Origin: Arcticibacter sp.
Lineage (GTDB): Bacteria; Bacteroidota; Bacteroidia; Sphingobacteriales; Sphingobacteriaceae
Length of the DNA stretch: 64,000 nucleotides
Reading direction: 5' to 3'
NCBI RefSeq assembly: GCF_045629565.1
Contig: NZ_JAZQRL010000007.1
Coordinates: 88 to 64,087 of the forward strand
The notes under the pieces were generated by a model. The model saw only the letters and a list, made by a program, of their open reading frames with translations, had not been told where the DNA came from and did no database searches. Shown piece by piece: positions 3,139 through 40,458 of this stretch (its first letter is position 1; each line of letters opens with the position of its first letter). Both the position numbers and the translations under genes were made by a program.

Positions 3139-4305
3139 ATGTTTCCTAACCTCTCGCATCTGATAGAGTATCTCACCGGACTGAATATTCCGCTTCCCAT
3201 CCAAACGTTTGGCTTCTTTGTAGCACTTGCCTTCGTGGCGGGCTATTGGGCGTTTAGCGAAGAATTAAAGAGAAAGGAGAAACAAGGACTGGTTCATCCT
3301 TTCAAAAGAAAGGTTACCATTGGCGAGCCTGCTTCTACTTCGGAAATGCTGATGAATGGCTTGTTTGGTTTCTTGTTAGGATATAAAATTGTTGCCGCCA
3401 TTTTTAGTTATAGCGAATTCGTCAATGATCCGCAAAGCTTTATTTTATCGGGGAGAGGCAACTTTTTCGGTGGCCTAATTGTCGGTTTAGCTTTTGCTTT
3501 CATGGCTTTTAACGATAAAAAGAAAGTTCAACTCCCAAAACCGCGGGTTGTCGAAGAAGTCGTTCATCCTTACCAGTATATGAGCACGCTGATCGTTTGG
3601 GCAGCTGTATGGGGCTTTCTCGGTGCAAAGATCTTCCACAATTTGGAGTATTTCGATGAGTTTATGCGCGACCCGATAGGTGGCCTTATTGCGTTTAGCG
3701 GACTCACCTTTTATGGTGGTTTAATTTGTGGTGGTGCCGCAGTTTTATATCTGGCTCATAAGAGGGGAATTAAGCCGGTTCATATGCTGGATGTAGGCGG
3801 ACCAGGTATGATGCTTGCCTATGCTGTCGGTCGGATGGGATGCCACATGTCGGGAGATGGTGACTGGGGTATTGAAAATTACAGCCCGAAGCCGGGATGG
3901 CTTAGCTGGGCTCCTGATTGGGTATGGTCATTTAAATTTCCCCATAATGTTATTAATGAAGGTGTACCTATTCCGGGATGTGTCGGCCGGTATTGTAATG
4001 AGCTTCCTGTAGCAGTGTACCCCACCTCATTGTATGAGTTCCTGGGCGGACTTTTACTATTTGCGGTGCTGTGGTCTCTGAGAACAAAGATAAAGCCTGC
4101 GGGAATGATGTTTTCTCTATACCTTATTTTAGCAGGTGTTGAGCGCTTTCTTATTGAGCTTATCCGGGTTAATTCTAAATATCATGTAGGGGGGCTTAGT
4201 TTTACTCAGGCCGAACTTATTTCCACCATAATGGTTTTGCTAGGAGTAGCAGGGATCATTTGGTCGCTGAATAATTACAAAAGCCAGAAAGTCCAGTCAG
4301 TATGA
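3139..4305 (+). CDS. lgt: prolipoprotein diacylglyceryl transferase
   Basis: Multi-TM; GLTFYGG, GRMGC, YPTSLYE, RFLIE.IR motifs. Confidence 0.88.
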
Positions 4306-7629: not shown

Positions 7630-7657
7630 TTAATACCGGTATTTCTAATAGGTAACC
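7630..7657 (-). promoter_or_regulatory. putative ECF-sigma promoter GGTTAC-N14-GGTATTAA
   Basis: Minus strand reads GGTTAC ctattagaaatacc GGTATTAA, 22 nt before lipoprotein A start. Confidence 0.6.
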
Positions 7658-7704: not shown

Positions 7705-7899
7705 TTATTGAGCTACAGTTGAATCAACAACTACAGTTGAATCAAGAACAGCAGTAGTGTCAGATAGCATAGTAGTGTCAGTTGTAGCAGAATCTACCAA
7801 AGTAGAGTCAGCACCACTTTCAGTTTTAGTAGAGTTGCAAGCAGATGCTGTTAAAGTGATAGCCAATGCTAAGAAACCGAATTTTACTAGATTTTTCAT
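7705..7899 (-). CDS. small acidic lipoprotein B (64 aa), D-S/T-rich
   Basis: Start reassigned to MKNLVKFGFLALAITLTASA-C (ATG 7899) by alignment with paralog A. Confidence 0.8.
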   Translation of the reverse strand: MKNLVKFGFLALAITLTASACNSTKTESGADSTLVDSATTDTTMLSDTTAVLDSTVVVDSTVAQ

Positions 7900-8008: not shown

Positions 8009-8036
8009 GGTTACAAATTTCTTAAAAAGGTATAAA
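8009..8036 (+). promoter_or_regulatory. putative autoregulatory ECF promoter GGTTAC-N14-GGTATAAA
   Basis: Plus strand GGTTAC aaatttcttaaaaa GGTATAAA immediately upstream of the ECF sigma gene. Confidence 0.6.
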
Positions 8037-8047
8037 TAGTGAGTAGA

Positions 8048-8605
8048 ATGATAAAAAGGTCAGAGCCAGCGGATAATGAGGTGATCCTCGGAATTCTGAA
8101 TGGTTCTAAGGGCATACTGGAAGAAATATATAAAGCGTATTTTCCGATGATTTTGCAGCTTGTGGTAATGAATAACGGGAATGACGATGATGCGAAGGAT
8201 GTTTTCCAGGAATCTGTTATCGTTCTTTATGATAAAGTCAAGAAGGGTGATTTTGTGCTGAATAGTAAGCTCAAAACCTTTATCTACTCAGTATGCAGGA
8301 GGCTATGGTTAAAAAGGCTTTCGCAGAAAAGTCGTAATACGGGTAATATTACAGACTTCGAGGATGTGCTTACTGTGGAAGATGACATCGAAAGGCATGA
8401 AGAGAAAGACCGACAGTTTACCATGATGGAAGCAGCTTTAGGACGACTCGGAGAGCCTTGTAAGACGATTATTGAGGATTACTATATAAACAACAGATCT
8501 ATGCAGGAGATCTGTGAGAAATTTGGTTACACAAATGCTGATAATGCAAAGAATCAGAAATACAAATGCCTGCAACGCTTAAAGAAACTATTCTTTCAAG
8601 TATAA
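8048..8605 (+). CDS. ECF-type RNA polymerase sigma factor
   Basis: DAKDVFQE (region 2), LKTFIYSVCRRLW, region-4 SMQEICEKFGYTNADNAKNQKYKC; ATG 8048 preferred over GTG 8039 because of the promoter position. Confidence 0.9.
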   Translation: MIKRSEPADNEVILGILNGSKGILEEIYKAYFPMILQLVVMNNGNDDDAKDVFQESVIVLYDKVKKGDFVLNSKLKTFIYSVCRRLWLKRLSQKSRNTGNITDFEDVLTVEDDIERHEEKDRQFTMMEAALGRLGEPCKTIIEDYYINNRSMQEICEKFGYTNADNAKNQKYKCLQRLKKLFFQV

Positions 8606-8618
8606 AGGAGTTTAGATT

Positions 8619-9716
8619 ATGGATATTACAGAACAAATTGAAGCATATTTACGGAACGAAATGTCGGCTGATGAGGCTGCTGCTTTCGAACGATTAAGAG
8701 CTTCTGATCCCGATCTGGACCAGAAGGTGGTATTGCATGAGCAGTTTATCAAACAGATGAAGGATTACGGAGAGCATCGTAAGCTGATTTCTGACATGAA
8801 TGCCATTCATGCAGGTCTTGATATCGAGTCGATCAGAGAAGAGGTGATCCCGTTCGGACTGAAAGTCAGAACGATGTGGAGAAAATACCGGGTTAATGGT
8901 GCTATAGCTGCATCTGTTGCGCTTATGGCAGTCTTTACTACGTTATTTTCCACGGGCTATTTCAACAAGGCTACTTCCATACGTTCGGATTATAACGCAC
9001 TTCGGAGAGAATGGAGCAGAGATATTAATACAAAGGTTAAGCGCTCTCAGAACGAGATATTGCAAAATATTAATGCCACCACCAAAGAGCCTTCGGCTCC
9101 ATCTCTATTTGGAGGTACAGGCTTTGCGTTGAACACAGAAGGATATGTAGTGACTAATTATCATGTAGTCAAAGGGGCCGACTCTGTTTATATCGAGGAT
9201 AATGATGGAAACTCATTTAAAACAACAACAGTTTATGTTCACCCGTCTTACGATATTGCTGTACTGAAAGTGACTGACGCTTCTTTCAAATTACCAAAAT
9301 CCCTTCCTTATTCGTTTAAGAAATCAGGTGCGGACTTGGGACTGGATGTTTATACGTTGGGCTATCCTAAAGACGACATAACCTACACCCGCGGATACTT
9401 AAGTTCCAAGAGTGGGTATGCAGGGGATACGCTTGCTTACCAAGTTGATATTTCCGTGAATGGAGGAAATAGTGGAGGTCCGCTGCTCGATAGTAAAGGA
9501 AATGTAGTTGGAGTAGTAAATGCAAAACAAGATCGTACTGATGGTGCATCTTTCGCAATTAAGTCTGCTTACCTCCTTGAAGCTATTGATGCTATTCCGA
9601 AAGATTCCTTAGGACGAAAAGTTTCAGTCAATACTAAGAACACGTTAGCGTCGTTAAATAGAAGTGAGCAGATCAAAAAGATAGGCAATTACATTTACAT
9701 GGTTAAGGTTTATTGA
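8619..9716 (+). CDS. anti-sigma-like N-domain + TM + S1/HtrA-like serine protease (no PDZ)
   Basis: N-term EQIEAYLRNEMS..EAAAFE helix; TM GAIAASVALMAVFTTLF; catalytic TNYHVV, YDIAVL, GNSGGP. Confidence 0.8.
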   Translation: MDITEQIEAYLRNEMSADEAAAFERLRASDPDLDQKVVLHEQFIKQMKDYGEHRKLISDMNAIHAGLDIESIREEVIPFGLKVRTMWRKYRVNGAIAASVALMAVFTTLFSTGYFNKATSIRSDYNALRREWSRDINTKVKRSQNEILQNINATTKEPSAPSLFGGTGFALNTEGYVVTNYHVVKGADSVYIEDNDGNSFKTTTVYVHPSYDIAVLKVTDASFKLPKSLPYSFKKSGADLGLDVYTLGYPKDDITYTRGYLSSKSGYAGDTLAYQVDISVNGGNSGGPLLDSKGNVVGVVNAKQDRTDGASFAIKSAYLLEAIDAIPKDSLGRKVSVNTKNTLASLNRSEQIKKIGNYIYMVKVY

Positions 9717-9735
9717 TAAGAGTTAGTTTGAGTGA

Positions 9736-9772
9736 ACAAAGAAGCCGTTTGGATTTCCAAACGGCTTCTTTG
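9736..9772. terminator. bidirectional terminator
   Basis: ACAAAGAAGCCGTTTGG / CCAAACGGCTTCTTTGT perfect stem between convergent genes. Confidence 0.8.
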
Positions 9773-9792
9773 TGTTATAAGGGTTTGTCTTA

Positions 9793-10968
9793 TTATCTGT
9801 CCAGCTCGCCAAGTACAATATCGACGGAGCCTATTATCGCTATCAGGTCTGCGATAAGAATTCCTCTGGAGATCTCAGAAATGACTGATAAGTTGCAAAA
9901 GCTTGGTCCCCGCGCTTTTACACGCCTGGGTATTTCAGACTTTCCATCTGTGATAAAGTAGAAGCCAAGTTCCCCCTTGGGGTTTTCTGCCCTCATGTAG
10001 AAATCCTGAGCCTTAGGAATGATTTTTTTAGGCAGCCTCGCTCTCGGGTCAAATTCCTTTGTACGCTTGAGATCGCTCTGTAGTCGTGCCAAACACTGAC
10101 TGATAATACCCACCGACTGCTCAATCTCATCTATACGAACCTTGAACCGGTCCCAACAGTCTCCCACAGTGCCCATTTCGCCCTTACCCACCGGAATCTC
10201 AAATTCCAGCTCTGGGTATGCTGAATATTCGTCAACTCGTCTTAGGTCCCATTTCAGCCCCGATCCACGCAGCATAGGTCCTGAGCATCCGTAATTGATC
10301 GCCGTGGAGAGTGGCAATACACCTACATTGGCAGTTCTGGATATGAAGATTTCATTTCCGGTTAGCAGTTCATTTAACTCGCCCATCTTTGGTTTAAAAT
10401 AGTCGATAAATTCTTTGCACCTTTCTTCAAAACCAACCGGAAGGTCATAATACAACCCGCCAACCCAGATATAGTTGTATAACATCCTCGATCCTGAAGC
10501 CCATTCAAGCATATTCATGATGTGTTCCCTATCCCTGAAACACCACAGAAAAGGCGTAAAGGCACCGATGTCTATTCCATACGTCCCTAAAGCGATAAGA
10601 TGAGAACCTATCCTGTTCAATTCAGAGACAAGTACGCGTATGTATTCAATCCGCTTCGGGATGTCTCCATCTATACCCAGCATTCTTTCAACCCCCATCA
10701 CCCAGGCATGACTGCTGTTCATGGAAGCCAGATAGTCGAGGCGGTCAACGAAGGGAATAGTCTGCTGATACGTCAGATTCTCCGCATGCTTTTCAAAGCA
10801 TCTGTGAAGATAGCCTACGTGTGGGATTACTTCTTTCACAATCTCCCCGTCAGTGATCAGTTCAAGCCTCAGAACTCCATGGGTGGAGGGGTGTTGGGGA
10901 CCCATGTTCAGAACCATTTCAGTAGGTTCCACTTCTGATATAAGCTTATGATACCGTGTTGATTCCAT
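9793..10968 (-). CDS. nuoD: NADH-quinone oxidoreductase subunit D
   Basis: [43 protein letters not shown]. Confidence 0.93.
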
Positions 10969-11465
10969 TAGTCCACTTTAATTCCGTTATAATATTCCTG
11001 CGCCTTGTAATCCTTCCTTAGGGGGTGACCTTCCCAGTCGTCCGGAAGCAGAATCCTTCTAAGATCAGGATGGTTTTCAAATCTTATTCCGACAAGGTCA
11101 TAGGCCTCACGTTCGTGCCAGTCGGCGGTTTTCCAAACTTCAGATACGGTTGGGAAGGAGGGCAGTTCCTCGCGACTACGGTCATGGTACTTGCGTACTT
11201 TTAATGTCAGGGAACTTTTATAAGGTATGGATGCGAGGTGATAAACGACGCCAAATATATTTTCCTCAACACCATAGTCAACGCCGCTAAGTGAAGCCAG
11301 AAAATCAAACCATGTCTTGTCGTTGTCTCTTAATTCCAGACAGACATCTGCTATTGCTTCTGGCTTAATGACCAGTGCAGGCTGGCGCCCGGTGGTTTCT
11401 TCGCCTACGATCACATCCTGACCAAATTTATCAGTCAGCAGGATTTTTATTTCTTCGAACGTCAT
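10968..11465 (-). CDS. nuoC: NADH-quinone oxidoreductase subunit C
   Basis: [38 protein letters not shown]. Confidence 0.92.
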
Positions 11466-11466
11466 T

Positions 11467-12120
11467 TTAAGGAGCTAATCGTACAATTTTCCAATTATTG
11501 TCTACCAGTTTGTAGGCAATCCGGTCGTGAAGTCTCCCTGATCCGCCCTGCCAGAACTCAATAAAGGTAGGCTTTACGACATAACCTCCCCAATGTGGTG
11601 GCTTCGCAACCTCTGCACCATCTTTGTATTTCTCCTCAAGAAGTGTGAGATTGTTTAAAAGAAACTCTTTATTGTCTATTTCACGGCTCTGAGGTGATGC
11701 AACAGCTCCGATCTGACTTTTCCTTGGGCGTGAATGGAAATAAGCTTCCGAGTCTTTCTCGTTTAATTTTTCGAGGGTTCCTTCGATTCGAACCTGTCGT
11801 TCCAATTCCTGCCAGAAAAAAACCATTGCAGCCTGCGCATTCTTGGTAATCTCCTGACCTTTTCGGCTCAGGTAATTGGTATAAAAAACAAACCCTCGCT
11901 CGTCGAATCCCTTTAACAACATTACCCGCGCTGAGGGTTTGCCGTCAGCGGTTGCTGTAGCCAGTGTCATAACATTCGGCTCATATATCTGCGAAGCCAT
12001 GGCTTCGGCGAACCATTTTGAAAATTGGCTAACCGGATTGGCTTCAACGTCTTTTTCAGATAGGGTAGCACTTTTATAGTCCTGTCGCAGGTTTTGGATG
12101 GTCTCTTTATCTAAGGTCAT
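11467..12120 (-). CDS. pdxH: pyridoxamine 5'-phosphate oxidase
   Basis: LRQDY, PSARVMLLKG, FYTNYLSRKG, IEFWQG..GRLHDR; TAACTTTG -7 box at 12128-12135. Confidence 0.92.
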   Translation of the reverse strand: MTLDKETIQNLRQDYKSATLSEKDVEANPVSQFSKWFAEAMASQIYEPNVMTLATATADGKPSARVMLLKGFDERGFVFYTNYLSRKGQEITKNAQAAMVFFWQELERQVRIEGTLEKLNEKDSEAYFHSRPRKSQIGAVASPQSREIDNKEFLLNNLTLLEEKYKDGAEVAKPPHWGGYVVKPTFIEFWQGGSGRLHDRIAYKLVDNNWKIVRLAP

Positions 12121-12223
12121 AACTATACAAAGTTAGTAATTGCATGAATCTAACTATTATAAACACCGAGATTAGTTAGGAATCTTATAAAAACATATAA
12201 TCGCATGACATTGTTATTGATAT

Positions 12224-12790
12224 ATGCTGAATAAAACCCAACCAACAAAAGGAAGTTTGCTGATCTCCGAACCGTTCATGCTTGATCCCAACTTCAAAAG
12301 GTCAGTCGTATTGCTGGCAGAACATAATGAAGAGGGGACAATCGGATATGTATTGAACCAGAGAAGCAATCTCTTGCTGAAGGACGTTTTGCCGGATTGT
12401 CCGGACGCGAACTTTCCGATTTATGTGGGTGGACCGGTGGGAGCAGACACACTGCATTTTATCCATTGTTGTGACGAGAGAATCAGTGGCGGGCAGGAAA
12501 TCAGCAAAGGGATATTCTGGGGTGGTAACTTCGAAGCGTTGCTGCTGTTAATCAACACGCAGCAAATAGGGCAGGATGAAATAAAATTCTTTGTTGGGTA
12601 TTCAGGATGGGAACCCGGGCAGCTAGATCGCGAGCTTGAGCAAAACTCCTGGTTGGTTACCGATAACTATAAAGCAGCTTTCGTGATGAATGCAAATAAT
12701 GAAGAGGGTTTATGGAAGGAGATTGTAGCAAACCTGGGTCCCAGGTTTGCTCATATCGTTAATTTTCCGGAGAATCCGCTTTGGAACTAA
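12224..12790 (+). CDS. YqgE/AlgH (UPF0301) family protein
   Basis: [38 protein letters not shown]. Confidence 0.87.
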
Positions 12791-13274
12791 ACGCAGATTC
12801 CATCTCCCGTGCGGTTTCTTCAACCTTCAGCTTGAGGTCCTCCTTATAAGCCTTAAGATTTTCCGTGATTCGAGGATCTGCAGTTGCTAAGATCTGCGCT
12901 GCCAGGATGCCGGCATTCTTTGCTGCGTTTAAGGCAACAGTGGCAACCGGAATTCCGTTTGGCATTTGAAGGATAGACAGAATGGAATCCCAGCCATCTA
13001 TTGAGTTCGAAGACTTAACAGGAACGCCAATAACCGGAAGATGCGTAATTGATGCAACCATACCCGGAAGGTGAGCTGCGCCACCTGCACCCGCAATGAT
13101 CACTTTGATTCCTCGTTCAGCAGCGGTTTTAGCATATTGGAACATTCTTTCCGGTGTGCGATGCGCAGATACTACCGTTATTTCGAATTCGGCACCCAAA
13201 GCCTTTAAAACATCCGCGGCATCTTGCATAACCGGTAGATCCGATTTGCTGCCCATAATAATTCCAACTTTCAT
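12759..13274 (-). CDS. purE: N5-CAIR mutase PurE
   Basis: [35 protein letters not shown]. Confidence 0.95.
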
Positions 13275-13281
13275 GTATATA

Positions 13282-14421
13282 CTAAGCTATTACTTTAACT
13301 ATGCTTTGAACTAAACGGGCTTTTTCTACAGCTTTCTCACGTATATCATCAATTATGGTTACGTGACCCATCTTTCTGAACGGTTTAGTGAACTTCTTTC
13401 CATAAAGGTGAACGTATACTCCGTCCATTTTCAGGATATCATTCAGGCCCTCGTATACAGCTGGTCCTTCGAATCCCGGCTCTCCGAGTAAATTGATCAT
13501 GACAGCATTGCTTACCGGTCTGATATCGCCTAAGGGAAGGTTAAAGATTGCCCTGAGATGTTGCTCAAACTGAGAGACGTAGTTTCCTTCAATCGTATGA
13601 TGACCGCTATTATGCGGTCTTGGAGCCAGTTCATTCACGAGAATGGTGCCTGTTTTGGTTAGAAACATTTCGACAGCCAGAAGTCCGGTTATTTTTAATG
13701 AATTAGCAATTTCAAGAGCTAGAAACTCTGCCCTTTGCTGTACCTCAAGAGGTAAGGTGCTGGGTGAGATGAGAAATTCAACAAGATTAGCGTCTGGATT
13801 GAACTCCATTTCCACGCAAGGGAAAGCTTTTGTTTCCCCATCATTATTCCGGGCGACAATTACCGCAATCTCTTTATCAAAATCAACCCACTCCTCAATT
13901 ATGCTCGGCTCATTAAATGCAGTATCAAAATCACCTTCGTTTTTTATTTTATATACGCCTTTACCGTCATAGCCGTCTCTCCTCAGCTTTTGTATGAAAG
14001 GGAAAGGAATAGAAGCGTTTTTTAACGAAGCCCTCGACGTTATCAGCTGAAACGGCGCAGATGGGATGCCATGTTGCTTGAAAAATTCTTTTTGAAGCCC
14101 TTTGTCCTGAATCAACCGGATGACACGTGGCTCAGGATAGACGAGCACGCCCTCTTCCTCCAGCTTCTGAAGGGCATCGACGTTAACCTTCTCTATTTCG
14201 ATAGTAAGAAGGTCAAGATTTTTACCGAATTCATAGACCGTTTCATAGTCTGTTAGAGAACCAACTACGAACTTATTACACAGATATCTGCAAGACGCCT
14301 CCGGGTCAGGGTCGAGAACTCGGATATTAACGTTGTAGTTTATTGCTTCCTGGATAAGCATACGGCCTAACTGGCCTCCTCCAAGAATTCCTACGCGCAA
14401 ATCACCATAAAATGCTTTCAT
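13282..14421 (-). CDS. purK: N5-CAIR synthase PurK
   Basis: [34 protein letters not shown]. Confidence 0.95.
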
Positions 14422-14507
14422 TCGTGCAAGTTTACTCTAAATCTCCGAAAAAAGCTAATATATATCCCCCTGGAGACTACATAATCTAACACGAAATTGC
14501 TGGTTAA

Positions 14508-14993
14508 TCAGCTGGATGTCAGAAGACTCTCTTCGGTTATTTTTTTCTGCAATTCAAGGAAACCACCGATCAGGGACTCGGGGCGTGGCGGACAGCCTTG
14601 TACATATATATCCACGGGTATGATACGGTCGACACCTTTTACAACATGATAACCATGTTGCCAGTAAGGACCACCACAGTTTGAGCAAGATCCCATAGAA
14701 ATAACGTAGCGGGGTTCCGGCATCTGCTCATAGAGCCTTCTGATCCGTTCAGCCATTTTAAACGTTACCGTTCCCGCAATTATAATAACATCAGATTGTC
14801 TTGGCGTAGGCCGGGGAAATACCCCAATCCGGTCAAGGTCAAAATTAGCGGAATAAGCACCCATCATTTCTATCGCGCAGCATGCTATTCCAAAGCTGAC
14901 AGGCCACAGCGAAGAAAGCCGGGCCCAGTTAAGCAGGTCGTCGAGTTTAGTAACCATTACTCCACCATCCTGCGACATTTTATCTAAACTCAT
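14508..14993 (-). CDS. nuoB: NADH-quinone oxidoreductase subunit B
   Basis: [29 protein letters not shown]. Confidence 0.93.
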
Positions 14994-15574
14994 TTTTGTA
15001 CTCTTTTAAAAGCAGGCTTAAATGCCGGCTTGGGTGATGATACCGGAGCTAATTGCTCTGGTGCTGTCTTTAACGGTTCTGCAGAAAAAGCTCGTGTGAC
15101 GTAGGTTTCAGCATTGATCCTGTCATATGCACTCAGAGGTACGGCCGTTTCCACAACTGACAGTGTAGGCTTCGGCTTTATCCAGTTTAGGTCTTTTCGT
15201 CTCCAAACGTAGACGAGCCCCAGTAATAAGATGCCAACGAAGATGAACATTTCAATCAGCGCCAGCCATCCCCAGCTAGAATCTGCACCAATCAGTTCTT
15301 TTTGTGCAAAAATAGTCGACCACGGAAAAATAAATATCATCTCAACTTCAAAAAGAAGAAACACCAACGCAATAACGTAGAATCTGGAGTTAATTTGTAC
15401 CCATGCATTTCCGCTTGGTTCCTCACCACATTCATAAGAGCTTAGTTTTAACGCATTTGGCCTGGAGGGGGATAGAAGTCTTGACAAAAGCATGGTGCCC
15501 GACACAACCATTATACCCACCAGAAGAATTATAAATACTTTTCCAAATTCTGTTAATTGAGACACTTCCTCCAT
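14990..15574 (-). CDS. nuoA: NADH-quinone oxidoreductase subunit A (C-terminally extended)
   Basis: [24 protein letters not shown]; start reassigned to MEEVSQL at 15574. Confidence 0.88.
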
Positions 15575-15623
15575 AAAATCAAATGTAAGCAATCCTTTAA
15601 AAACACATATTATTAATACAAAA

Positions 15624-15654
15624 TTTGACAATAAAAAAAATCTCTCTATATTTG
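15624..15654 (+). promoter_or_regulatory. Bacteroidetes housekeeping promoter of the rpmH operon
   Basis: TTTG (15624-27), 19-nt spacer, TATATTTG (15647-54). Confidence 0.7.
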
Positions 15655-32909: not shown

Positions 32910-33875
32910 TTGATCACAAATCAAATTTGGCTTCGGCTACTGAGGCAAAAGGAATTGAATTGCTCTTTTCGAACTGACCTTAAGGTTCTTTGTGCTTACT
33001 GTATATTCCATCTGATTACAATTTTTTTAGATTCTTCTGTGCCGGTAGCATTGCTATATGGTCCGGTATTGTATAGATTGTATCGCAGTCTAACGATGGA
33101 ACCCGTAACAAGTCGTATTGAATATCATTTGCACCAGGTGCCGTTTTACGCGATGACGGTGCTAAGTCAGATTGATATTGACTTATATCATGCCATTCAT
33201 CTTCCCGCAATGCCGTTAAGCATAGTGGCGTATGGTTTGTATATAGGTTTTTCACGAAGCAAGATTCCCAGGGAAGCCAGCCTCTCGGATGTGCAGATTT
33301 TGAAGCTGTTGACTATTATATCTTTAGCTATATCCGTTCCGCTCTTCATGTTCGCATCTCAACGTCATATTACATGGGACTGGGGTTTTGGAGTAGGGCA
33401 GCTTACTTATTATATATTGGCCTTTTGTGTATTGATGCTGGGAGCATATGTATTTTTCAACCCTAAGCAACCGTCAGCGGATCTTATTGAAAAGAAAGGG
33501 GATAGTATACACATGGTCGGTTCCCTTGTTGATAGTCAAAATCTCAGCAAAGTGCTCATCGAGCGTCAGTTGTACCTCGATCCGCTGCTTTCACTTGAAA
33601 AGTTTGCTTCTGAAGTCGGACTTCCCAAACATAAGTGTACTAAACTTATTCAGATAGAGCATGGCAAAAGTTTTTACCAGCTTATAGCCGAATACAGAAT
33701 TGAACATGCCAGCCGTCTATTGAAACAGGATGTATTAAGCGAGCTCACCATAGAGAGTATAGCAGAATCATGTGGTTTTAATTCAAAAGCATCATTTAAT
33801 CGTTACTTTAGAGACATAAGCGGATGCACCCCTTCTGAATATCGAAGGAAGTTCAGCGAATCTTCTGATGCATAG
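32910..33875 (+). CDS. membrane-embedded AraC family regulator
   Basis: N-terminal TMs with LYGPVLY; C-terminal TIESIAESCGFNSKASFNRYFRDISGCTPSEY; start codon uncertain. Confidence 0.82.
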   Translation: MITNQIWLRLLRQKELNCSFRTDLKVLCAYCIFHLITIFLDSSVPVALLYGPVLYRLYRSLTMEPVTSRIEYHLHQVPFYAMTVLSQIDIDLYHAIHLPAMPLSIVAYGLYIGFSRSKIPREASLSDVQILKLLTIISLAISVPLFMFASQRHITWDWGFGVGQLTYYILAFCVLMLGAYVFFNPKQPSADLIEKKGDSIHMVGSLVDSQNLSKVLIERQLYLDPLLSLEKFASEVGLPKHKCTKLIQIEHGKSFYQLIAEYRIEHASRLLKQDVLSELTIESIAESCGFNSKASFNRYFRDISGCTPSEYRRKFSESSDA

Positions 33876-33887
33876 CTACCAGACCTT

Positions 33888-34985
33888 ATGGAGGATATTC
33901 TACGGCAAATCATTTCATGGTGCCTGGCTGCAAATGTTACTGCAGGCATCATTGTGGCTTATATGAGTTTTAAGATCAGATCAGGCCCCCTGCATGAAAA
34001 AATACTGACCTTTGGTGTTGGCCTGGTTGTAGTGCATAGCTTTCATGCGCTAGTGGTCGCATCTTTTTTTGCTGATAAGGCTTATCTTGATTGGGCAGCG
34101 CCATACGGACTGGCTTATGGGCCGACCCTCTATTTCGCGATGAGGACAGTACAGGGTAATCATCGTTTCAATAAGAAGGATTATCTGCTGCACGCTACAC
34201 CTTTTATTTTGTATTACCTGTTGTATATCGTCTGGATCAGCACTTCTGCAGATAAGGATATTTTGTATGTGATGATCAGGTACTCCTTATTCAATGCTAT
34301 CATCCTATCATTGCTCGGTTACGGAGCATATAGCTTCTACCTCTACAGGAATGGAACTATGAAGTTTAAAAGAGTCTTAGATCTTTTGTCAACCGCCGGG
34401 ATAATGCTTGTTTTTACCGGTTTCCTGTTAATTACGGTTGATTCTTCCTCACCAAGAAGTCACGCCTCATTTTACGTTCCGCGTTTGATGATGTATGGGA
34501 TCATGACCATAGTTGTTTTTATCGTCCTGGATCATAAGCTGCGCTTGTTGATTTATCCGGAAGGTACGTTGAATGCTGGCAACACGGACGAGGTTATGGC
34601 AGTAGAACCCAGGGCCTATGCCAAATCAGGATTACCCGAACAAGCTCTGGTTATATATGAAGAGCGTCTGACAGCGATGGTGGAAAATGAAAGACTGTTC
34701 TTAGACCCTTCGCTTAGCATCGACCGCCTTTCGGAATCGACTAAGATTCCGAAGCATTATTTGTCGCAAATATTCAGTTTACAGATGGGCAAAAGTTTTG
34801 CCGACTACATTAATCAACTGCGCATTCAATACGCCTGCAAAGAATTGGAACAGCCAAGAGATATCTCCATGGAGCAACTGGGATATGAATGTGGCTTCAA
34901 TTCTAAAGTATCCTTCTACAGGAACTTTAAACTTCATACCGGTTTGACACCCTCACAGTATATCACAAAAGTGAGGAACTCTTAA
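33888..34985 (+). CDS. membrane-embedded AraC family regulator
   Basis: Multiple TMs with AYGPTLY; C-terminal GYECGFNSKVSFYRNFKLHTGLTPSQY. Confidence 0.87.
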   Translation: MEDILRQIISWCLAANVTAGIIVAYMSFKIRSGPLHEKILTFGVGLVVVHSFHALVVASFFADKAYLDWAAPYGLAYGPTLYFAMRTVQGNHRFNKKDYLLHATPFILYYLLYIVWISTSADKDILYVMIRYSLFNAIILSLLGYGAYSFYLYRNGTMKFKRVLDLLSTAGIMLVFTGFLLITVDSSSPRSHASFYVPRLMMYGIMTIVVFIVLDHKLRLLIYPEGTLNAGNTDEVMAVEPRAYAKSGLPEQALVIYEERLTAMVENERLFLDPSLSIDRLSESTKIPKHYLSQIFSLQMGKSFADYINQLRIQYACKELEQPRDISMEQLGYECGFNSKVSFYRNFKLHTGLTPSQYITKVRNS

Positions 34986-35577: not shown

Positions 35578-36795
35578 ATGAGGGTTCTGCATACAGCCGA
35601 CTGGCATTTGGGAAAAAAGTTAGAGCAATGTGAACGTACAGAGGAGCATCAGTTCTTTCTGGACTGGCTCATTGGGGAGCTCAGTCACCATTGTATTGAA
35701 GTTTTAATCATTGCCGGAGATGTTTTCGACACGGGTAATCCTTCGAATATAGCTCTTGAGCAATACTATAAGTTCCTGTGGCAGGTTAAGGGAACCTGCT
35801 GCCGGGAAGTGATCATCATTGGCGGCAATCACGATTCGATCAGTACGCTCAACGCACCCAAAGAGCTGCTGAAGTTTTTCAATATTCATGTTGTTGGTGG
35901 AGTTCCGGAAGATATTCGTCAGCAGATCATTCCGGTTTTGAATGCAGATGGGAAAGTAGAGCTTGTGATATGTGCGATTCCTTTTTTGAGGGACAGAGAC
36001 GTTCGGCTCTCTGTTGCAGGCGAAACCGCGCAGGACCGGGAGTCGCGAATTAAGGAAGGGATTTGTGCGCATTACAATAGGTTCAAAGCCGAGATTGCCG
36101 CCTATAAAGAAGAGGGAATACCGGTCATTGCGACCGGGCATCTATTTGCTGCTGGCTCCAGTACTTCTGAAAGTGAAAAGGAGATCCACGTTGGCAATCT
36201 GGGGCAGATCTGCGGAGACCAGTTCCCTGAAGAATTCAATTACGTAGCCTTAGGTCATATACACCGTCCGCAGATCGTGAACAAAATGAGTCATGTACGT
36301 TACTCTGGTTCACCTATTCCTTTAAGCTTTTCAGAAACAGATGACGAAAAGCAGGTGCTGATTCTGGACTTCCGAGAAGGAGGGCTGCAACAGATCACAG
36401 CATTGAAAGTGCCTTGCTGCAGAAAGCTGATCAGGATAAAAGGAACACTGGAAGAAGTAAGAATGAAGCTGGACGTTATGGAAGACCGGGGTATGATGAT
36501 GCCTGCCTGGGTAGAGCTTCAAATAAAGACCGACCGTTTTATTCATGATTTGGATGAGCAGTTGGACAAGTTAAAAGCCGGCAAGCCATTTATTGAACGC
36601 TTCTTTCCGCGTCAGATCAAGACAAGTGCTGCCCTTAGCTTAAACGAGCAGACCATTTTGGAATCTGCGTTGCATGAGCTGGAACCCCGTTCGGTATTTC
36701 TAAAGCGATGTGAATCGGAATTTCCAAATGAGGACCATGGTGAACTGCTGCGATTGTTCGACGAAATCCTGGAAAAAATGGCTCAGAGGGACTAA
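35578..36795 (+). CDS. sbcD: exonuclease SbcCD subunit D
   Basis: HTADWHLG, AGDVFD, GGNHDS, ALGHIH, YSGSPIPLSFSE. Confidence 0.93.
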   Translation: MRVLHTADWHLGKKLEQCERTEEHQFFLDWLIGELSHHCIEVLIIAGDVFDTGNPSNIALEQYYKFLWQVKGTCCREVIIIGGNHDSISTLNAPKELLKFFNIHVVGGVPEDIRQQIIPVLNADGKVELVICAIPFLRDRDVRLSVAGETAQDRESRIKEGICAHYNRFKAEIAAYKEEGIPVIATGHLFAAGSSTSESEKEIHVGNLGQICGDQFPEEFNYVALGHIHRPQIVNKMSHVRYSGSPIPLSFSETDDEKQVLILDFREGGLQQITALKVPCCRKLIRIKGTLEEVRMKLDVMEDRGMMMPAWVELQIKTDRFIHDLDEQLDKLKAGKPFIERFFPRQIKTSAALSLNEQTILESALHELEPRSVFLKRCESEFPNEDHGELLRLFDEILEKMAQRD

Positions 36796-36798
36796 CTC

Positions 36799-39700
36799 AT
36801 GAAAATATTAAGCGTACGTTTTTTAAACCTGAATTCCCTGAAGGGAGAACATCAGATCCGCTTTGATCAAAGCCCCTTCACCGAAAGTGGATTATTCGCT
36901 ATTACAGGCCCTACGGGAGCTGGGAAGACGACCATCCTGGATGCTATTACCATTGCGCTCTATGGCCGCGTTCATCGGCATGACAGAGATGTTTCTGAGA
37001 GTATGACCAGGCATACAGCGGAGTCTTTCTCAGAGGTGGAGTTTGAGATCAAGGGAAAGGGCTATCGGGCGAAATGGTCGCAGCGCCGCGGTTATGGCAA
37101 GGTGGACGGTGCACTGCAGACTCAACGGATGGAGCTTGTTGATCTTAGCACTTTGGAAATTATGGTTAATCACCCTCTTTCTGAAGTGCAACAGCAGATC
37201 GTCGCCCTATGTGGACTTGATTATCATCAATTTCTGCGCTCGGTAATGTTGTCTCAAGGAGACTTTACGCAGTTTCTCAAGTCGAAAGAGAATGAGCGTT
37301 CGGAACTACTGGAAAAAATCACCGATACGGCAGTGTATTCGGAGATCTCCAGGTATGTGTTTGACCGGGCAAGGCAGGAGAGAGAGAAGCTGGAAAGGCT
37401 GAGAGAGCAACTGGATAATGCAGATATCCTTTCCGATGAAGAAGTTTCACAGCTGAACATTTCTTTGCAGGATCTGAGTATTCGGGAAAAGGCCGTTCGG
37501 GATAACTCTTTGGATACACGAGATAAAATCAACTGGTTAGGAGTTTTAGGTAAACTGAAAGTTGATGAAGCGCGGCAACGGGATTTGCTGCGTGAACAGC
37601 AGGAGAAGTTGATTCTCCATCAGGAGGACTTCCAGAAGCTGGCGCTGCATCAGAAGGCCATGGCCTACCGTTCAGACCTGCAGGATATTCAGAATCATGA
37701 AGGGAGAATCGAGGAACTTGCATTAAGGATTCGGGAACAGGAAGAGGTGCTTCCCTCGGTTCAGGAGAAGAGCCGGCAGGCAGATCAGGCATTTGAGGAA
37801 GGTAAAAAGCTGCTCGATCAGAAGGACGGGAGCTTGCAAGAGCAGGAGCCGCTGTTTGAGAAGGTGATTCAGAAAGATCTGCAGCTGGACGGCTTCAGAA
37901 AGGAGCTCGAGAGGGCAGAGAGCTGGGCTAAGACGGCACTAAAAGATGTGGATCAGACCATCAGTGACCGGGATACTTTAGCTCAAAATATTGCTGCGCT
38001 TGAGGTGGAGATCAGCGCTTTGAACCAGTTGATTGTCGGTCAGCCCAAAGAAAATGAACTGGAGACGGCAATTGTTCGCATCGATCAATATCAGCAGGAA
38101 TTAGGCCGTGCGCGGCTTTCACTTCGGGATAAAAAAGCCGAAGAAAGAAGTGTCGTCGATCTGCAAAAGGATCAGGAAAAGTCGCTTCTTGCCATTGAAG
38201 AGGAAATAGCTAAATCAAATGCCGGCTTGTTGCTCAAGCAGCAGGAACTGGTTCGACTTCGAGACAAGCTGCGGACGGAGTTTGAGGGCAAGTCGCTTGA
38301 CGTCCTGGAAGAGTCGGCAGACAAGCTTCCTGGCTTGATCAGCCTATGTCAGGATCAATCGAGGTTAGCTAAAGAGTACTTCCAAACCCGCGCTCAGCTG
38401 GATGCTCTAAAGCAGGAGCAAAGCCGGAACCAGGAATCGGTGGTTTCGCTTGAGGCAGTGCTGGCCCTCCAAACGGAGGAAAAGCAGGAAGCCGAACGCA
38501 TATTAGAAGATCACAGGAAAGTGGTTGATATACAGATTCGCATACAAAAATACGATGCGGATAGAGGTCAGCTGCAGGAGGATCAGGAATGTCCCCTTTG
38601 CGGATCAAAAGAGCACCCCTATGTCGAGAAACACTATCATTCGGCACTTACGGAAGCAGAACAGAAGCGGAACGCCCATGAAGTCTATGTGCAGAAACTT
38701 TCCAGGGAGATTCAGGATTCGGCAATCAAGCTGAGTGCCTCGAAAGAGAAACTCGCAGGCCAGCTTAAGCAGTCGGCAGAGCGTGAAGAGAAGCTTTCTA
38801 ATATGGAGAGTTCCTTCGCTTTAAATAATGGGAGGTTGCCTGCACCACTGGCGCTGGAGAAGCCCGCCATTATCAATGCGATCGTTCTTAAGAAACAAAG
38901 TGAATTGTCAGCCTTGCAGGCTCAGATCCAGGCACTGCGTGTTCTGCAGAAAGACATCAGCATGGTGGAGCTGATGTTGATCGATTTGAAAAGTACGATC
39001 GAACAGGCGAAGACCAGGAAAGAATCGCTGCTGACACAACTCAGCAGCGGGGCCGGAAATCTGGAAAAGGTCCGGCTGGAAATTGGCAAGTTGGATCTTG
39101 AAATTGGTGACCTACAGAATAAGATTCAGGACGTGTTAAGATCTTTGCAGATTACCGACATTCCGGAAGATATCATCCGCGCGTTGAACGCACGTTTGCT
39201 GGTATGCCGGCAGTCGAATGAGAAGTTAGCTTCGGCCACATTGCGAAAGCAGGAGCTAGGCGCAGAGAGTATAAGTCTGGAAAAGGTTCTGAGAGCAAAG
39301 CAGGAACTTCTTCAGCAACGGGAGAAAGAGCGCAAGCAGGCTGATCTGCGTTTGCAGGAAGAGCTGGGCGAACGTCGGGAGCTGTTTGGTGAGAAAGATC
39401 CTGTGTTTGAGCGCGAGCAGCTTAGGAACCAGCTGAAGCAGCTTCGTGAAGCTTTGGAGAGGCAGCAGGAACTGCGGAATCAGCTGCAAAATCAGTTGCT
39501 AGCGCTGGAAGCTTCATTACAGAAGGACAGGCAGGACCTGGATAAAGCGGGCAAGGATTTGTCCCGTCTTTCAGCGGAATTGACAAGAAAACTTCAGGAA
39601 CAGGGTATTGCCGATATAGCGGAGCTCCGTTCCTATAGACTTGATGAGGGTATCGCTGCTGAGATCTCGACGATGGAGGCTGAGATCAAGACGGCTATCG

Positions 39701-40458
39701 CCAATGCAGAGCATCTGTTAACGAGGTTGCGTGCCGACTTGCAGCTTGAGCGATCGAAGGCTCTTACGGAACTGAGTTCTGAGGAACTTCAGGAGCAGCT
39801 AAGTTCTCTGGACGCCTCCTGGCGGGACCTGAATCAGGAGATCGGAGGAATTCGAAACCGGCTGCAGTCTGATTTTGAGACTAAGCTTCGTTTCAAAGAA
39901 ATTGCCGATCAGATCGTCGTTCAGCAGGGAGAGCTGCAGAGGTGGCAGAAAATATCGTCGCTCATTGGTTCAGATAATGGCAAAAAGTTCAGCAACTTCG
40001 CTCAAGGACTTACCTTGGCTCGTTTGACGGAGTTAGCCAATCTGCATTTGCAGAAGCTGACGGACCGTTACCGGATTCTAAAGAGCCCTTCGAAGGACCT
40101 GGAGATCCAGATCATCGACGGATATCAGGCTGATGTGGTCAGGCCCATGACGACCTTGTCGGGAGGGGAGAGCTTTCTGGTAAGTTTGGCGCTGGCCCTG
40201 GGTCTATCGGACCTGGCCAGCCGGAAGACGCAGATTAATTCTTTGTTCATTGATGAAGGCTTTGGTACCCTGGATTCGGATACGCTGGATGTTGCGATCT
40301 CGGCATTGGAGAACTTGCAGGCGAACGGTAAGACAATCGGGATTATCTCGCATGTGGAGGCGCTGAAAGAGCGGATTGGGACGCAGATTCAGGTGAGCAA
40401 GCAGCCGGGCGGGGTGAGTAGGATCAGGGTGATGAGTTATGGGGAGGTTGTGGGGTGA
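36799..40458 (+). CDS. sbcC: exonuclease SbcCD subunit C (Rad50-like)
   Basis: GPTGAGKT Walker A, long coiled coil with CPLCG zinc hook, LSGGE, LFIDEGFGTLD. Confidence 0.93.
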   Translation: MKILSVRFLNLNSLKGEHQIRFDQSPFTESGLFAITGPTGAGKTTILDAITIALYGRVHRHDRDVSESMTRHTAESFSEVEFEIKGKGYRAKWSQRRGYGKVDGALQTQRMELVDLSTLEIMVNHPLSEVQQQIVALCGLDYHQFLRSVMLSQGDFTQFLKSKENERSELLEKITDTAVYSEISRYVFDRARQEREKLERLREQLDNADILSDEEVSQLNISLQDLSIREKAVRDNSLDTRDKINWLGVLGKLKVDEARQRDLLREQQEKLILHQEDFQKLALHQKAMAYRSDLQDIQNHEGRIEELALRIREQEEVLPSVQEKSRQADQAFEEGKKLLDQKDGSLQEQEPLFEKVIQKDLQLDGFRKELERAESWAKTALKDVDQTISDRDTLAQNIAALEVEISALNQLIVGQPKENELETAIVRIDQYQQELGRARLSLRDKKAEERSVVDLQKDQEKSLLAIEEEIAKSNAGLLLKQQELVRLRDKLRTEFEGKSLDVLEESADKLPGLISLCQDQSRLAKEYFQTRAQLDALKQEQSRNQESVVSLEAVLALQTEEKQEAERILEDHRKVVDIQIRIQKYDADRGQLQEDQECPLCGSKEHPYVEKHYHSALTEAEQKRNAHEVYVQKLSREIQDSAIKLSASKEKLAGQLKQSAEREEKLSNMESSFALNNGRLPAPLALEKPAIINAIVLKKQSELSALQAQIQALRVLQKDISMVELMLIDLKSTIEQAKTRKESLLTQLSSGAGNLEKVRLEIGKLDLEIGDLQNKIQDVLRSLQITDIPEDIIRALNARLLVCRQSNEKLASATLRKQELGAESISLEKVLRAKQELLQQREKERKQADLRLQEELGERRELFGEKDPVFEREQLRNQLKQLREALERQQELRNQLQNQLLALEASLQKDRQDLDKAGKDLSRLSAELTRKLQEQGIADIAELRSYRLDEGIAAEISTMEAEIKTAIANAEHLLTRLRADLQLERSKALTELSSEELQEQLSSLDASWRDLNQEIGGIRNRLQSDFETKLRFKEIADQIVVQQGELQRWQKISSLIGSDNGKKFSNFAQGLTLARLTELANLHLQKLTDRYRILKSPSKDLEIQIIDGYQADVVRPMTTLSGGESFLVSLALALGLSDLASRKTQINSLFIDEGFGTLDSDTLDVAISALENLQANGKTIGIISHVEALKERIGTQIQVSKQPGGVSRIRVMSYGEVVG

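Follow-up and report, generated by a model that had tools for sequence, protein, structure and literature searches.

In a 64,000-nt stretch of an Arcticibacter sp. contig (NZ_JAZQRL010000007.1; this whole stretch is called the window from here on), the gene at 8619-9716 encodes a fusion protein that joins a helical N-terminal domain (the N-domain), through one predicted transmembrane (TM) helix, to a trypsin-like protease of the HtrA type with an intact His/Asp/Ser triad. The gene stands directly behind that of an extracytoplasmic function (ECF) sigma factor, and one promoter-like motif is common to this gene pair and to the small lipoprotein genes next to it. The best explanation that we can offer for the whole is a self-contained ECF module, in which an anti-sigma domain is fused to a built-in site-1 protease of the DegS/HtrA kind, and we consider this explanation somewhat probable. 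Comparison across genomes gives good support for a conserved module; that the fusion is an anti-sigma factor which cleaves itself is plausible but unproven.

Architecture of the fusion protein

A preliminary description of this DNA had the fusion gene starting 13 nt behind the sigma stop codon, and the protein crossing the membrane once. Both points hold. The gap between the sigma stop, which ends at 8605, and the ATG at 8619 is 13 nt, and there is a single hydrophobic segment, at residues 92-114 or so, in which A97 and A98 are invariant, also when the distant homologs are included. Five lysines or arginines lie in the 15 residues before the TM helix and three in the 15 residues after it. This bias, together with the hydrophobic segment, predicts a single-pass protein with its N terminus inside and its C terminus outside, and we are highly confident that the protease domain lies on the periplasmic side.

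The protease domain is matched by Pfam Trypsin_2 over residues 166-299 (E=5e-25), and the triad is found in the motifs TNYH182VV, YD212IAVL and GNS285GGP (codons cat at 9162-9164, gat at 9252-9254 and agt at 9471-9473). A sequence-profile search of the Protein Data Bank (PDB) reports DegP-like proteins, MucD, DegS and AlgW at E-values from 1e-24 to 1e-18, and a Foldseek search of the PDB places DegS-deltaPDZ at the top (2qf0, E=1e-12, 30% identity), followed by MucD, Deg1, HtrA1 and DegP. By its chymotrypsin fold, triad and GNSGG oxyanion motif, the domain belongs with HtrA/MEROPS S1C. On the other hand, the one or two C-terminal PDZ domains of the HtrA family are absent: the protein has no Pfam match to PDZ, and only 41 residues follow the protease domain. 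The complete triad without a PDZ domain is what the preliminary description had read in the translation. The NCBIfam models for MarP, DegP, DegS and HhoA cover the protease domain only and stay far below their cut-offs (for degS, 70 vs 423 bits), which therefore indicates an HtrA-type protease domain in a non-canonical protein.

Could the protease domain be a dead enzyme that has become a ligand-binding pseudo-protease, acting purely as a sensor? Sensor domains derived from enzymes are common, and this is the reason for considering the idea; we have no positive evidence for it. None of the 88 close and 30 distant homologs departs from the triad, and in the distant set, at 30-44% identity, H182, D212, S285, G283, G286 and P288, including the GNSGGP oxyanion motif, are all retained without exception. 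Given the invariant triad we reject the pseudo-protease reading, which we regard as scarcely credible.

An AlphaFold2 model of the full fusion protein, built on 88 homologs, has a mean pLDDT (the predicted confidence per residue) of 80.7. In it the N-domain consists of helices at residues 3-11, 17-29, 31-66 and 69-76, with pLDDT about 80-94 over residues 1-78. A long helix at 79-111 takes in the TM segment with moderate confidence, the linker at 117-156 falls below 50, and the protease barrel at 164-324 has high confidence. The preliminary description spoke of a short coiled segment after the TM helix; the segment is there, and what is predicted in it is really a helix (residues 120-150) at pLDDT below 50. 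The C-terminal extension sits where HtrA proteins bear their PDZ domains and is modelled with a helix at 348-356 and a strand at 359-364 (block-mean pLDDT 78-94).

The protein ends in MVKVY-COOH (residues 361-365, window 9699-9713), a hydrophobic and aromatic C-terminus for which the model gives a beta-strand with confidence. No close homolog deviates at K363 or Y365; in the distant set only FMVK is semi-conserved and the last residues vary. A conceivable role for this tail would be, for example, to dock in the place of a PDZ ligand.

Conservation and coupling to the sigma gene

The ORF (open reading frame) upstream of the fusion gene scores 71.9 bits against TIGR02937 (cut-off 42.9, E=4e-20) and 26.5 bits against Sigma70_r2 (cut-off 24). 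More than 4000 database proteins match the fusion. The best 120 are all full-length, have 52-95% identity, come mostly from Sphingobacteriaceae, and carry in public annotation only the name 'S1C family serine protease'. A scan of species-representative genomes identifies at least 574 species with a relative, and an N-domain profile compared to a library of 1.8 billion proteins finds 503 cluster representatives, of which the full-length ones have about 360-378 residues and the same architecture.

The preliminary description had suggested surveying whether the gene always sits next to ECF genes. We have run this survey on the best 80 loci. In all 80 a sigma ortholog on the same strand comes directly before the gene, and the gaps measure 14-81 nt. 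In these loci the sigma is better conserved (61-82% identity) than the fusion protein (49-66%). The sigma gene is also immediately upstream in distant loci (L088, L089, L090 and Chitinophaga niabensis CP154260.1, which is L091), and one distant family member comes from Microscillaceae. By these relatives, the module ranges over at least Sphingobacteriia, Chitinophagia and Cytophagia. In the 64-kb window itself we found no paralogs of the sigma or of the protease.

In 30 distant representatives the N-terminal signature IExYLxGEMxxxExxxFE is retained. The identity per segment in this set is 44% for the protease, 31% for the C-terminal tail, 30% for the N-domain, 27% for the TM helix and 16% for the linker. 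The linker is the least conserved segment in the close set as well, at 44%, and the ALRRE motif that it contains is conserved in the close clade only. The fusion architecture is ancient.

No terminator-like site was found on the + strand between the sigma and protease genes, and the two are predicted to be co-transcribed as a two-gene operon. The hairpin that follows the fusion gene contains a perfect 17-bp hairpin inside a longer stem, separates the protease gene from nuoD, which is convergent with it, and was missed by a simple terminator scan. It is probably a bidirectional terminator shared with nuoD.

The N-domain as a candidate anti-sigma domain

The N-domain is, with good though not full confidence, the cognate anti-sigma domain of the upstream sigma factor, that is, a domain that would bind it. 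Several indications point in this direction. Anti-sigma factors are typically recognised by a gene at position +1 and one TM helix in its product (PMC7826278). In 28 of the 31 family members compared, the N-domain has a sub-threshold match to the Pfam family zf-HC2, at 16-19 bits for a cut-off of 22.2 (best E=2e-4), which covers helix 1 (positions 3-26). The zf-HC2 family is the Pfam model of the N-terminus of ZAS anti-sigma factors. A separate structure model of the N-domain has a pLDDT of 87 (about 87-90 for the domain over this and the full-length model), and Foldseek reports eight matches for it, all with E>=2.9, six of which are chains of ECF anti-sigma factors in complex with their sigmas. 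The anti-sigma factors among these weak matches are RslA, RskA, PupR and RsiW, the last with a root-mean-square deviation of 1.5 A over 47 columns. A word-indexed homolog search with the N-domain profile gave only five fragment matches, one of them named 'anti-sigma factor RsiW' by its source.

The residues I7, Y10, F23, D34, L56 and H64 of the N-domain are invariant. The fusion protein contains no cysteine at all, and the zinc-ligand motif H-x3-C-x2-C of ZAS domains is missing from the N-domain. When aligned by eye, the conserved R27-x3-P31-x2-D34 has the same spacing as this motif in RsiW, and residues other than zinc ligands at the zinc-ligand positions would fit a zinc-less derivative of the ZAS domain. 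The N-domain is thus most likely a zinc-less class-I anti-sigma domain, on circumstantial support.

More distant relatives of the N-domain bear a TPR ectodomain in place of the protease. Both of those whose upstream gene is identifiable with Pfam follow an ECF sigma gene at a distance of 12-13 nt, and in a third case of this type the upstream ORF, of 181 residues, has only a sub-threshold ECF match (35 vs 42.9 bits).

Two metagenomic loci, L084 (2656-4084, - strand) and L085 (1938-4399, - strand), carry distant N-domain relatives downstream of an ECF or ECF-like gene. The relative in L084 has a TPR ectodomain; none was recognised in that of L085. At both, the gene that comes next lies on the other strand and codes for a TPR-CHAT protein of about 960 residues, reminiscent of the TPR-CHAT ectodomain that the anti-sigma factor DdvA carries.

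A promoter-like motif and the local regulon

An alignment of the regions ahead of the sigma genes in related loci brought out a bipartite motif, GGGTTAC-N15-GTATWAA, which also has a mirrored copy on the opposite strand. Upstream DNA is available for 75 related loci: in all 75 the motif, with its spacing unchanged, precedes the sigma gene, and the mirrored copy is present in 74. Within 20-49 nt downstream of 77 out of 82 mirrored copies there is a gene for a lipoprotein of 54-80 residues, and L089 and L090, two distant loci, likewise have both the motif and the divergent lipoprotein gene. Over the 64 kb of the window, the strict form of the motif has 2 sites for 0.02 expected, and a relaxed form has 3 for 0.10 expected, the added site being 7630-7657. 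This third copy is unpaired and lies correctly oriented 23 nt before a second lipoprotein gene; the orientation of the motif is fixed because of it, and we rejected the reverse orientation.

From its position and conservation, we consider GGGTTAC-N15-GTATWAA a putative conserved ECF-type promoter. With three copies, before the sigma gene and before each of the two lipoprotein genes, the local regulon would therefore be formed by the operon and the lipoproteins. Apart from the operon, the regulon has no local members but the mini-lipoproteins, and through the common motif they would be at least outputs of the sigma. Table 1 collects the coordinates.

Table 1. Positions in the window of the two-gene operon, the segments of the fusion gene, the divergent lipoprotein genes and the motif copies
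Feature	Position	Strand	Remarks
Mini-lipoprotein gene 2, 69 aa	7398..7607	-	lipobox LSASA followed by C; NF050142 E=1e-7, 32.6 bits
Motif of lipoprotein gene 2, GGTTAC-N16-TATTAA	7630..7657	-	ends 23 nt upstream of the gene 2 start
Mini-lipoprotein gene 1, 64 aa	7705..7899	-	ATG at 7899; MKNLVKFGFLALAITLTASA followed by C...; NF050142 E=1.2e-9, 38.7 bits
Motif of lipoprotein gene 1, GGGTTAC-N15-GTATTAA	7937..7965	-	mirrors the sigma copy
Motif of the sigma operon, GGGTTAC-N15-GTATAAA	8008..8036	+	ends 2 nt before GTG 8039
ECF sigma factor, 188 aa from the conserved GTG	8039..8605	+	TIGR02937, Sigma70_r2
Fusion ORF, 365 aa	8619..9716	+	ATG at 8619; upstream sigma stop ends 8605
N-domain, putative zinc-less class-I anti-sigma domain (aa 1-90)	8619..8888	+	cytoplasmic, helical by prediction
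Single TM helix (aa about 91-114)	8889..8960	+	hydropathy, flanking charges
Juxtamembrane linker, periplasmic by prediction (aa 115-163)	8961..9107	+	candidate region for tethering or cleavage
HtrA/S1C protease domain (aa 164-324), triad H182/D212/S285, GNSGGP	9108..9590	+	
C-terminal 41-aa extension (aa 325-365) and stop codon	9591..9716	+	
Hairpin then U-rich tract, likely terminator of the two-gene operon	9732..9778	+	minimum free energy -30.5 kcal/mol, z=-6.6

A proposed mechanism and its alternatives

We infer that the sigma is released by regulated proteolysis. In the mechanism that we propose, the N-domain would sequester the sigma at the membrane. An envelope signal, for instance an unfolded or mislocalised protein that resembles a substrate, would switch on the protease domain, which is probably trimeric, and the active protease would cut the flexible linker of its own or of a neighbouring protomer. 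The leftover stub would pass to an RseP-type site-2 protease and to cytoplasmic proteases, and the sigma so freed would transcribe its own operon and the divergent PG1828-family lipoprotein genes from GGGTTAC-N15-GTATWAA. HtrA proteases form trimers, and autoprocessing of the N-terminal region is frequent among them, as in HtrA2/Omi. The anatomy of the fusion, in which a linker of about 50 residues, low in pLDDT and least conserved, joins the TM helix to the protease, fits self-cleavage, and DdvA of Myxococcus xanthus offers a precedent for the concept (PMC11506125). A cut in the linker would be the most economical trigger, and would do for the fusion what DegS does for RseA. That the fusion protein cuts itself as the trigger of release, acting as a built-in site-1 protease, we take to be a serious possibility, somewhat short of an even chance.

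Several observations weigh against this proposal. The Foldseek search with the N-domain model gives no significant match; the N-domain profile compared to PDB sequences gives only two chance matches, at E=6.5; and hhalign of this profile against RsiW(1-80) finds no match, in a comparison of low power because its template is a single sequence. The best zf-HC2 score, 19 bits, does not reach 22.2, and no curated threshold is reached by any other route. The positive-inside bias is modest, with family means of 3.7 lysines or arginines before the TM helix and 2.5 after it. No family-wide conserved motif was found in the linker in an alignment of the 30 distant representatives. At the sigma gene, the -10-like GTATAAA (in the region 8030-8041) ends 2-3 nt before the conserved GTG, and most related loci have no alternative sigma start codon; if the motif is a promoter, the sigma mRNA would therefore be leaderless or nearly so, and with such tight spacing the promoter assignment of the sigma copy is not secure. 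The preliminary description had called the N-domain anti-sigma-like, and this reading now has comparative support (80/80 coupling to the sigma, sub-threshold zf-HC2 in 28/31, and TPR relatives behind ECF sigmas); direct similarity to solved anti-sigma domains is not significant.

How else could these observations be explained? It may be that the N-domain is not an anti-sigma domain, and that the gene encodes a membrane-anchored HtrA-like protease within the sigma regulon. By analogy with sigmaE and degP in E. coli, a protease under sigma control could simply be an effector, and the sigma would be controlled otherwise, for example transcriptionally. Such a reading agrees with the fact that every direct test of similarity between the N-domain and anti-sigma domains is sub-significant, and with a public annotation that goes no further than S1C family serine protease. 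Bacteroidota have about 22 ECF sigmas per genome, and only about 6% of these have a recognisable class-I anti-sigma partner as neighbour (PMC7826278, PMC7406223). Yet the cytoplasmic domain is conserved with invariant residues, which argues for a specific partner, and this N-domain is also combined with TPR ectodomains, which are unrelated to the protease, in genes that likewise stand right behind ECF sigma genes. Moreover, the weak matches are consistently to anti-sigma factors, and the gene has the +1 position and single TM helix that are standard for them. We consider it quite improbable that the protein is a regulon member and nothing else.

A different alternative accepts the anti-sigma domain and questions the role of the protease. 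The protease would not be its own site-1 protease; it would be an enzyme of quality control or processing held on a tether, or a sensor that binds substrates, perhaps acting on the PG1828-family lipoproteins or on misfolded envelope proteins, and release would depend on a separate site-1 protease, or on substrate engagement that lifts a steric block to RseP. Known systems do use a separate site-1 protease, be it DegS, PrsW or signal peptidase (PMC8103513, PMC8844934). The conserved triad implies that catalysis matters, yet nothing marks the linker, with its lack of a conserved motif, as the substrate. The lipoproteins, which are the only other local regulon members, look disordered and are rich in A/V/T/S, the residues that HtrA proteases favour at P1. 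On the other side, a bulky ectodomain generally must be removed before RseP acts (PMC11506125), and a fusion of protease and anti-sigma in more than 500 species would have no evident purpose unless catalysis were coupled to sigma release. We find this alternative unlikely on the whole, and still the strongest of those considered.

The proposed self-cleaving module also admits a wider reading, as a natural RseA-DegS fusion that constitutes a complete and autonomous circuit of envelope homeostasis. Here the HtrA domain would monitor the co-regulated PG1828-family outer-membrane lipoprotein, which could be its substrate, a decoy or its activator; how much lipoprotein is supplied, or whether it is mislocalised, would decide on a cut of the linker in trans within the trimer, and the sigma would then set the levels of both the lipoprotein and the anti-sigma/protease. 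This wider reading is speculative, and we would not bet on it.

Comparison with known systems

In E. coli, RseA, DegS and RseP control sigmaE, and AlgW/MucA play a similar part in Pseudomonas. In function, RseA with DegS (or MucA with AlgW) is the nearest analogue of the fusion, which has one chain for the two and no PDZ sensor. The preliminary description took it as established that RseA is cut by a separate protease, DegS, which is correct (PMC8103513). As in these systems, a single-pass anti-sigma would hold an ECF sigma at the membrane. Like DegS, the fusion has a membrane-anchored HtrA protease predicted to face the periplasm; its fold is nearest to DegS-deltaPDZ and its sequence to DegP, MucD, DegS and AlgW. 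Like that of sigmaE, the sigma operon would be autoregulated, as the motif suggests. Unlike RseA and DegS, the fusion has both functions on one polypeptide, and since it has no PDZ domain, it cannot sense the C-termini of outer-membrane proteins in the manner of DegS. Its N-domain does not resemble RseA by sequence, being only weakly zf-HC2-like, and, unlike the sigmaE system, there is no RseB-like gene and the local regulon consists of mini-lipoproteins.

The class-I (ZAS) pair RsiW-SigW offers another comparison. Both RsiW and the fusion begin with a helical domain of about 70-90 residues that is followed by one TM helix, but the fusion N-domain has neither Cys nor His zinc ligands, and its similarity to RsiW stays under every significance threshold.

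Another parallel is DdvA-DdvS of Myxococcus xanthus. DdvA is also a single-pass anti-sigma, with a cytoplasmic ZAS-type domain and a flexible linker to a periplasmic domain of protease fold (PMC11506125). The authors of that work put forward a trans-autoproteolysis induced by a signal, a built-in site-1 step that would precede RseP, and they call this mechanism unprecedented (PMC11506125). The ectodomain of DdvA is a TPR-CHAT domain of about 900 residues (a caspase-like Cys protease) with an incomplete active site, whereas that of the fusion is a small S1C serine protease with a complete and invariant triad. DdvA is restricted to Myxococcota and one Comamonas, and controls a CBASS/CRISPR defence island; the fusion is found in at least 574 Bacteroidota species genomes, and would control small lipoproteins. 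In both cases autoproteolysis is a proposal. DdvA is the only precedent that we found for an anti-sigma with a protease-fold ectodomain. A fusion of anti-sigma and trypsin/HtrA was not found described in targeted searches of full texts; the main text of the ECF classification (PMC7826278) is silent about it, and its supplementary group descriptions, which lay outside the search, might mention one.

RsgI, with its SEAL domain, and regulators of the FecR/FoxR type are similar in that their extracytoplasmic cleavage is intrinsic and precedes RseP, as proposed here for the fusion (PMC10328401, PMC10556640, PMC12036975). Their cleavage is non-enzymatic and constitutive, by an N-O acyl shift or in a SEA-like manner, and the fragments remain associated until the signal arrives. 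In contrast, the triad protease of the fusion would allow cleavage that is itself regulated by the signal.

The PG1828-family lipoproteins

The 'neighbouring lipopeptides' of the preliminary description, which it thought of as a possible activating ligand, are in fact genes for lipoprotein precursors of 64-69 residues that probably belong to the PG1828 family. Twenty-five of 26 members of the lipoprotein family match NF050142, 'PG1828 family lipoprotein' (best E=5e-18), and this is also the NCBI/UniRef name of homologs in Pedobacter, Sphingobacterium and Solitalea; the two lipoproteins of the window score 38.7 and 32.6 bits, under the NF050142 cut-off of 50. A lipobox is present in 77 of 82 cases. 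The signal peptide and lipobox are highly conserved (MKNLFKFGFLALAISLSVAA followed by C-NSNK), and the mature lipoprotein has about 45 residues, 73% of them A/T/S/D/V, arranged in xxD(S/T) or 11-residue repeats. In gene 2 the mature part has about 48 residues and is A/T/S/D-rich, with 11-residue repeats of the DSIDSTA type.

The two lipoprotein genes of the window are tandem paralogs, each with its own copy of the motif. Across species, the signal peptide is far better conserved than the mature acidic repeat peptide, which is built of an 11-mer (DSIDSTAxxxT) or a 5-mer (VDTAA).

PG1828 of Porphyromonas gingivalis is a triacylated outer-membrane lipoprotein and a TLR2 agonist (PMC13466725, PMC10126205). 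The window lipoproteins share with it size, lipobox, a mature N-terminus of the CNS... type, acidic A/T/S/D-rich repeats and probably the family NF050142 (compare 3622-3834 of L094, a P. gingivalis-like metagenome contig). The neighbour of PG1828 there, PG1827, is the ECF sigma SigH, and to compare this locus with the module we retrieved P. gingivalis contigs by means of a published primer sequence. In L094 the lipoprotein gene, at 3622-3834, is convergent with sigH. It has, unlike the window genes, a sigmaA-type TAnnTTTG box, and lacks the motif GGTTAC-N16-TATWA; an ECF motif is absent from the P. gingivalis lipoprotein locus. In a BLASTP comparison, P. gingivalis SigH and the window sigma have nothing specific in common (E=0.86). 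The ORFs listed for L094 2300-6500 include no protease fusion, and the P. gingivalis contigs give no tblastn match to the window protease. An equivalence of the module with the SigH (PG1827)/PG1828 locus is therefore rejected, since only the lipoprotein family is common to both. A lipoprotein homolog in Pseudarcicella is likewise unlinked to the module; from the P. gingivalis and Pseudarcicella cases, the lipoprotein family is wider than the regulatory module.

At 3560-3640 of L094, a box of the Bacteroidetes housekeeping type, TAtaTTTG, precedes the PG1828 gene, and the mature N-terminus reads CNSQAK. For the same intergenic region, a 229-nt 'sRNA' beside sigH has been reported (PMC3422912), and this transcript may simply be the lipoprotein mRNA.

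Other features of the window

In the region 9793-15631 (- strand) the NADH dehydrogenase genes look split, with nuoD at 9793-10968, a NuoC-like ORF at 10968-11465 and nuoA (Oxidored_q4, Pfam) at 14990-15631. Between the NuoC-like ORF and nuoA there are pdxH-, purE- and purK-like ORFs, recognised by eye from their translations, and one ORF on the + strand. The nuoD and NuoC-like labels are also by eye from translations; nuoA alone was checked with Pfam. At 32910-34985 (+ strand) there are two tandem genes for AraC-family regulators, of 321 and 365 residues, followed by the sbcD/sbcC nuclease pair at 35578-40458 (+ strand), with no apparent link to the fusion.

Significance

If the wider, speculative reading is right, this would be the first sigmaE-like pathway defined in Bacteroidota, and the first case of a catalytically complete protease domain of an anti-sigma that acts as its own signal-regulated site-1 protease. 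The module would put into one protein what the textbook sigmaE pathway keeps apart, its brake and its scissors, and as a test case for the mechanism of an own site-1 protease it is far more widespread than DdvA and catalytically complete. With a compact regulon (one motif, three promoters) and a point mutant, S285A, the hypothesis is directly testable in strains of Pedobacter, Sphingobacterium or Chitinophaga that can be cultured.

The module ties regulation to the PG1828 lipoprotein family, whose member in P. gingivalis is a major TLR2 agonist. And the family of the fusion would add to the known anti-sigma factors a type that is widespread and unrecognised, one that now goes merely by the name of S1C serine protease.

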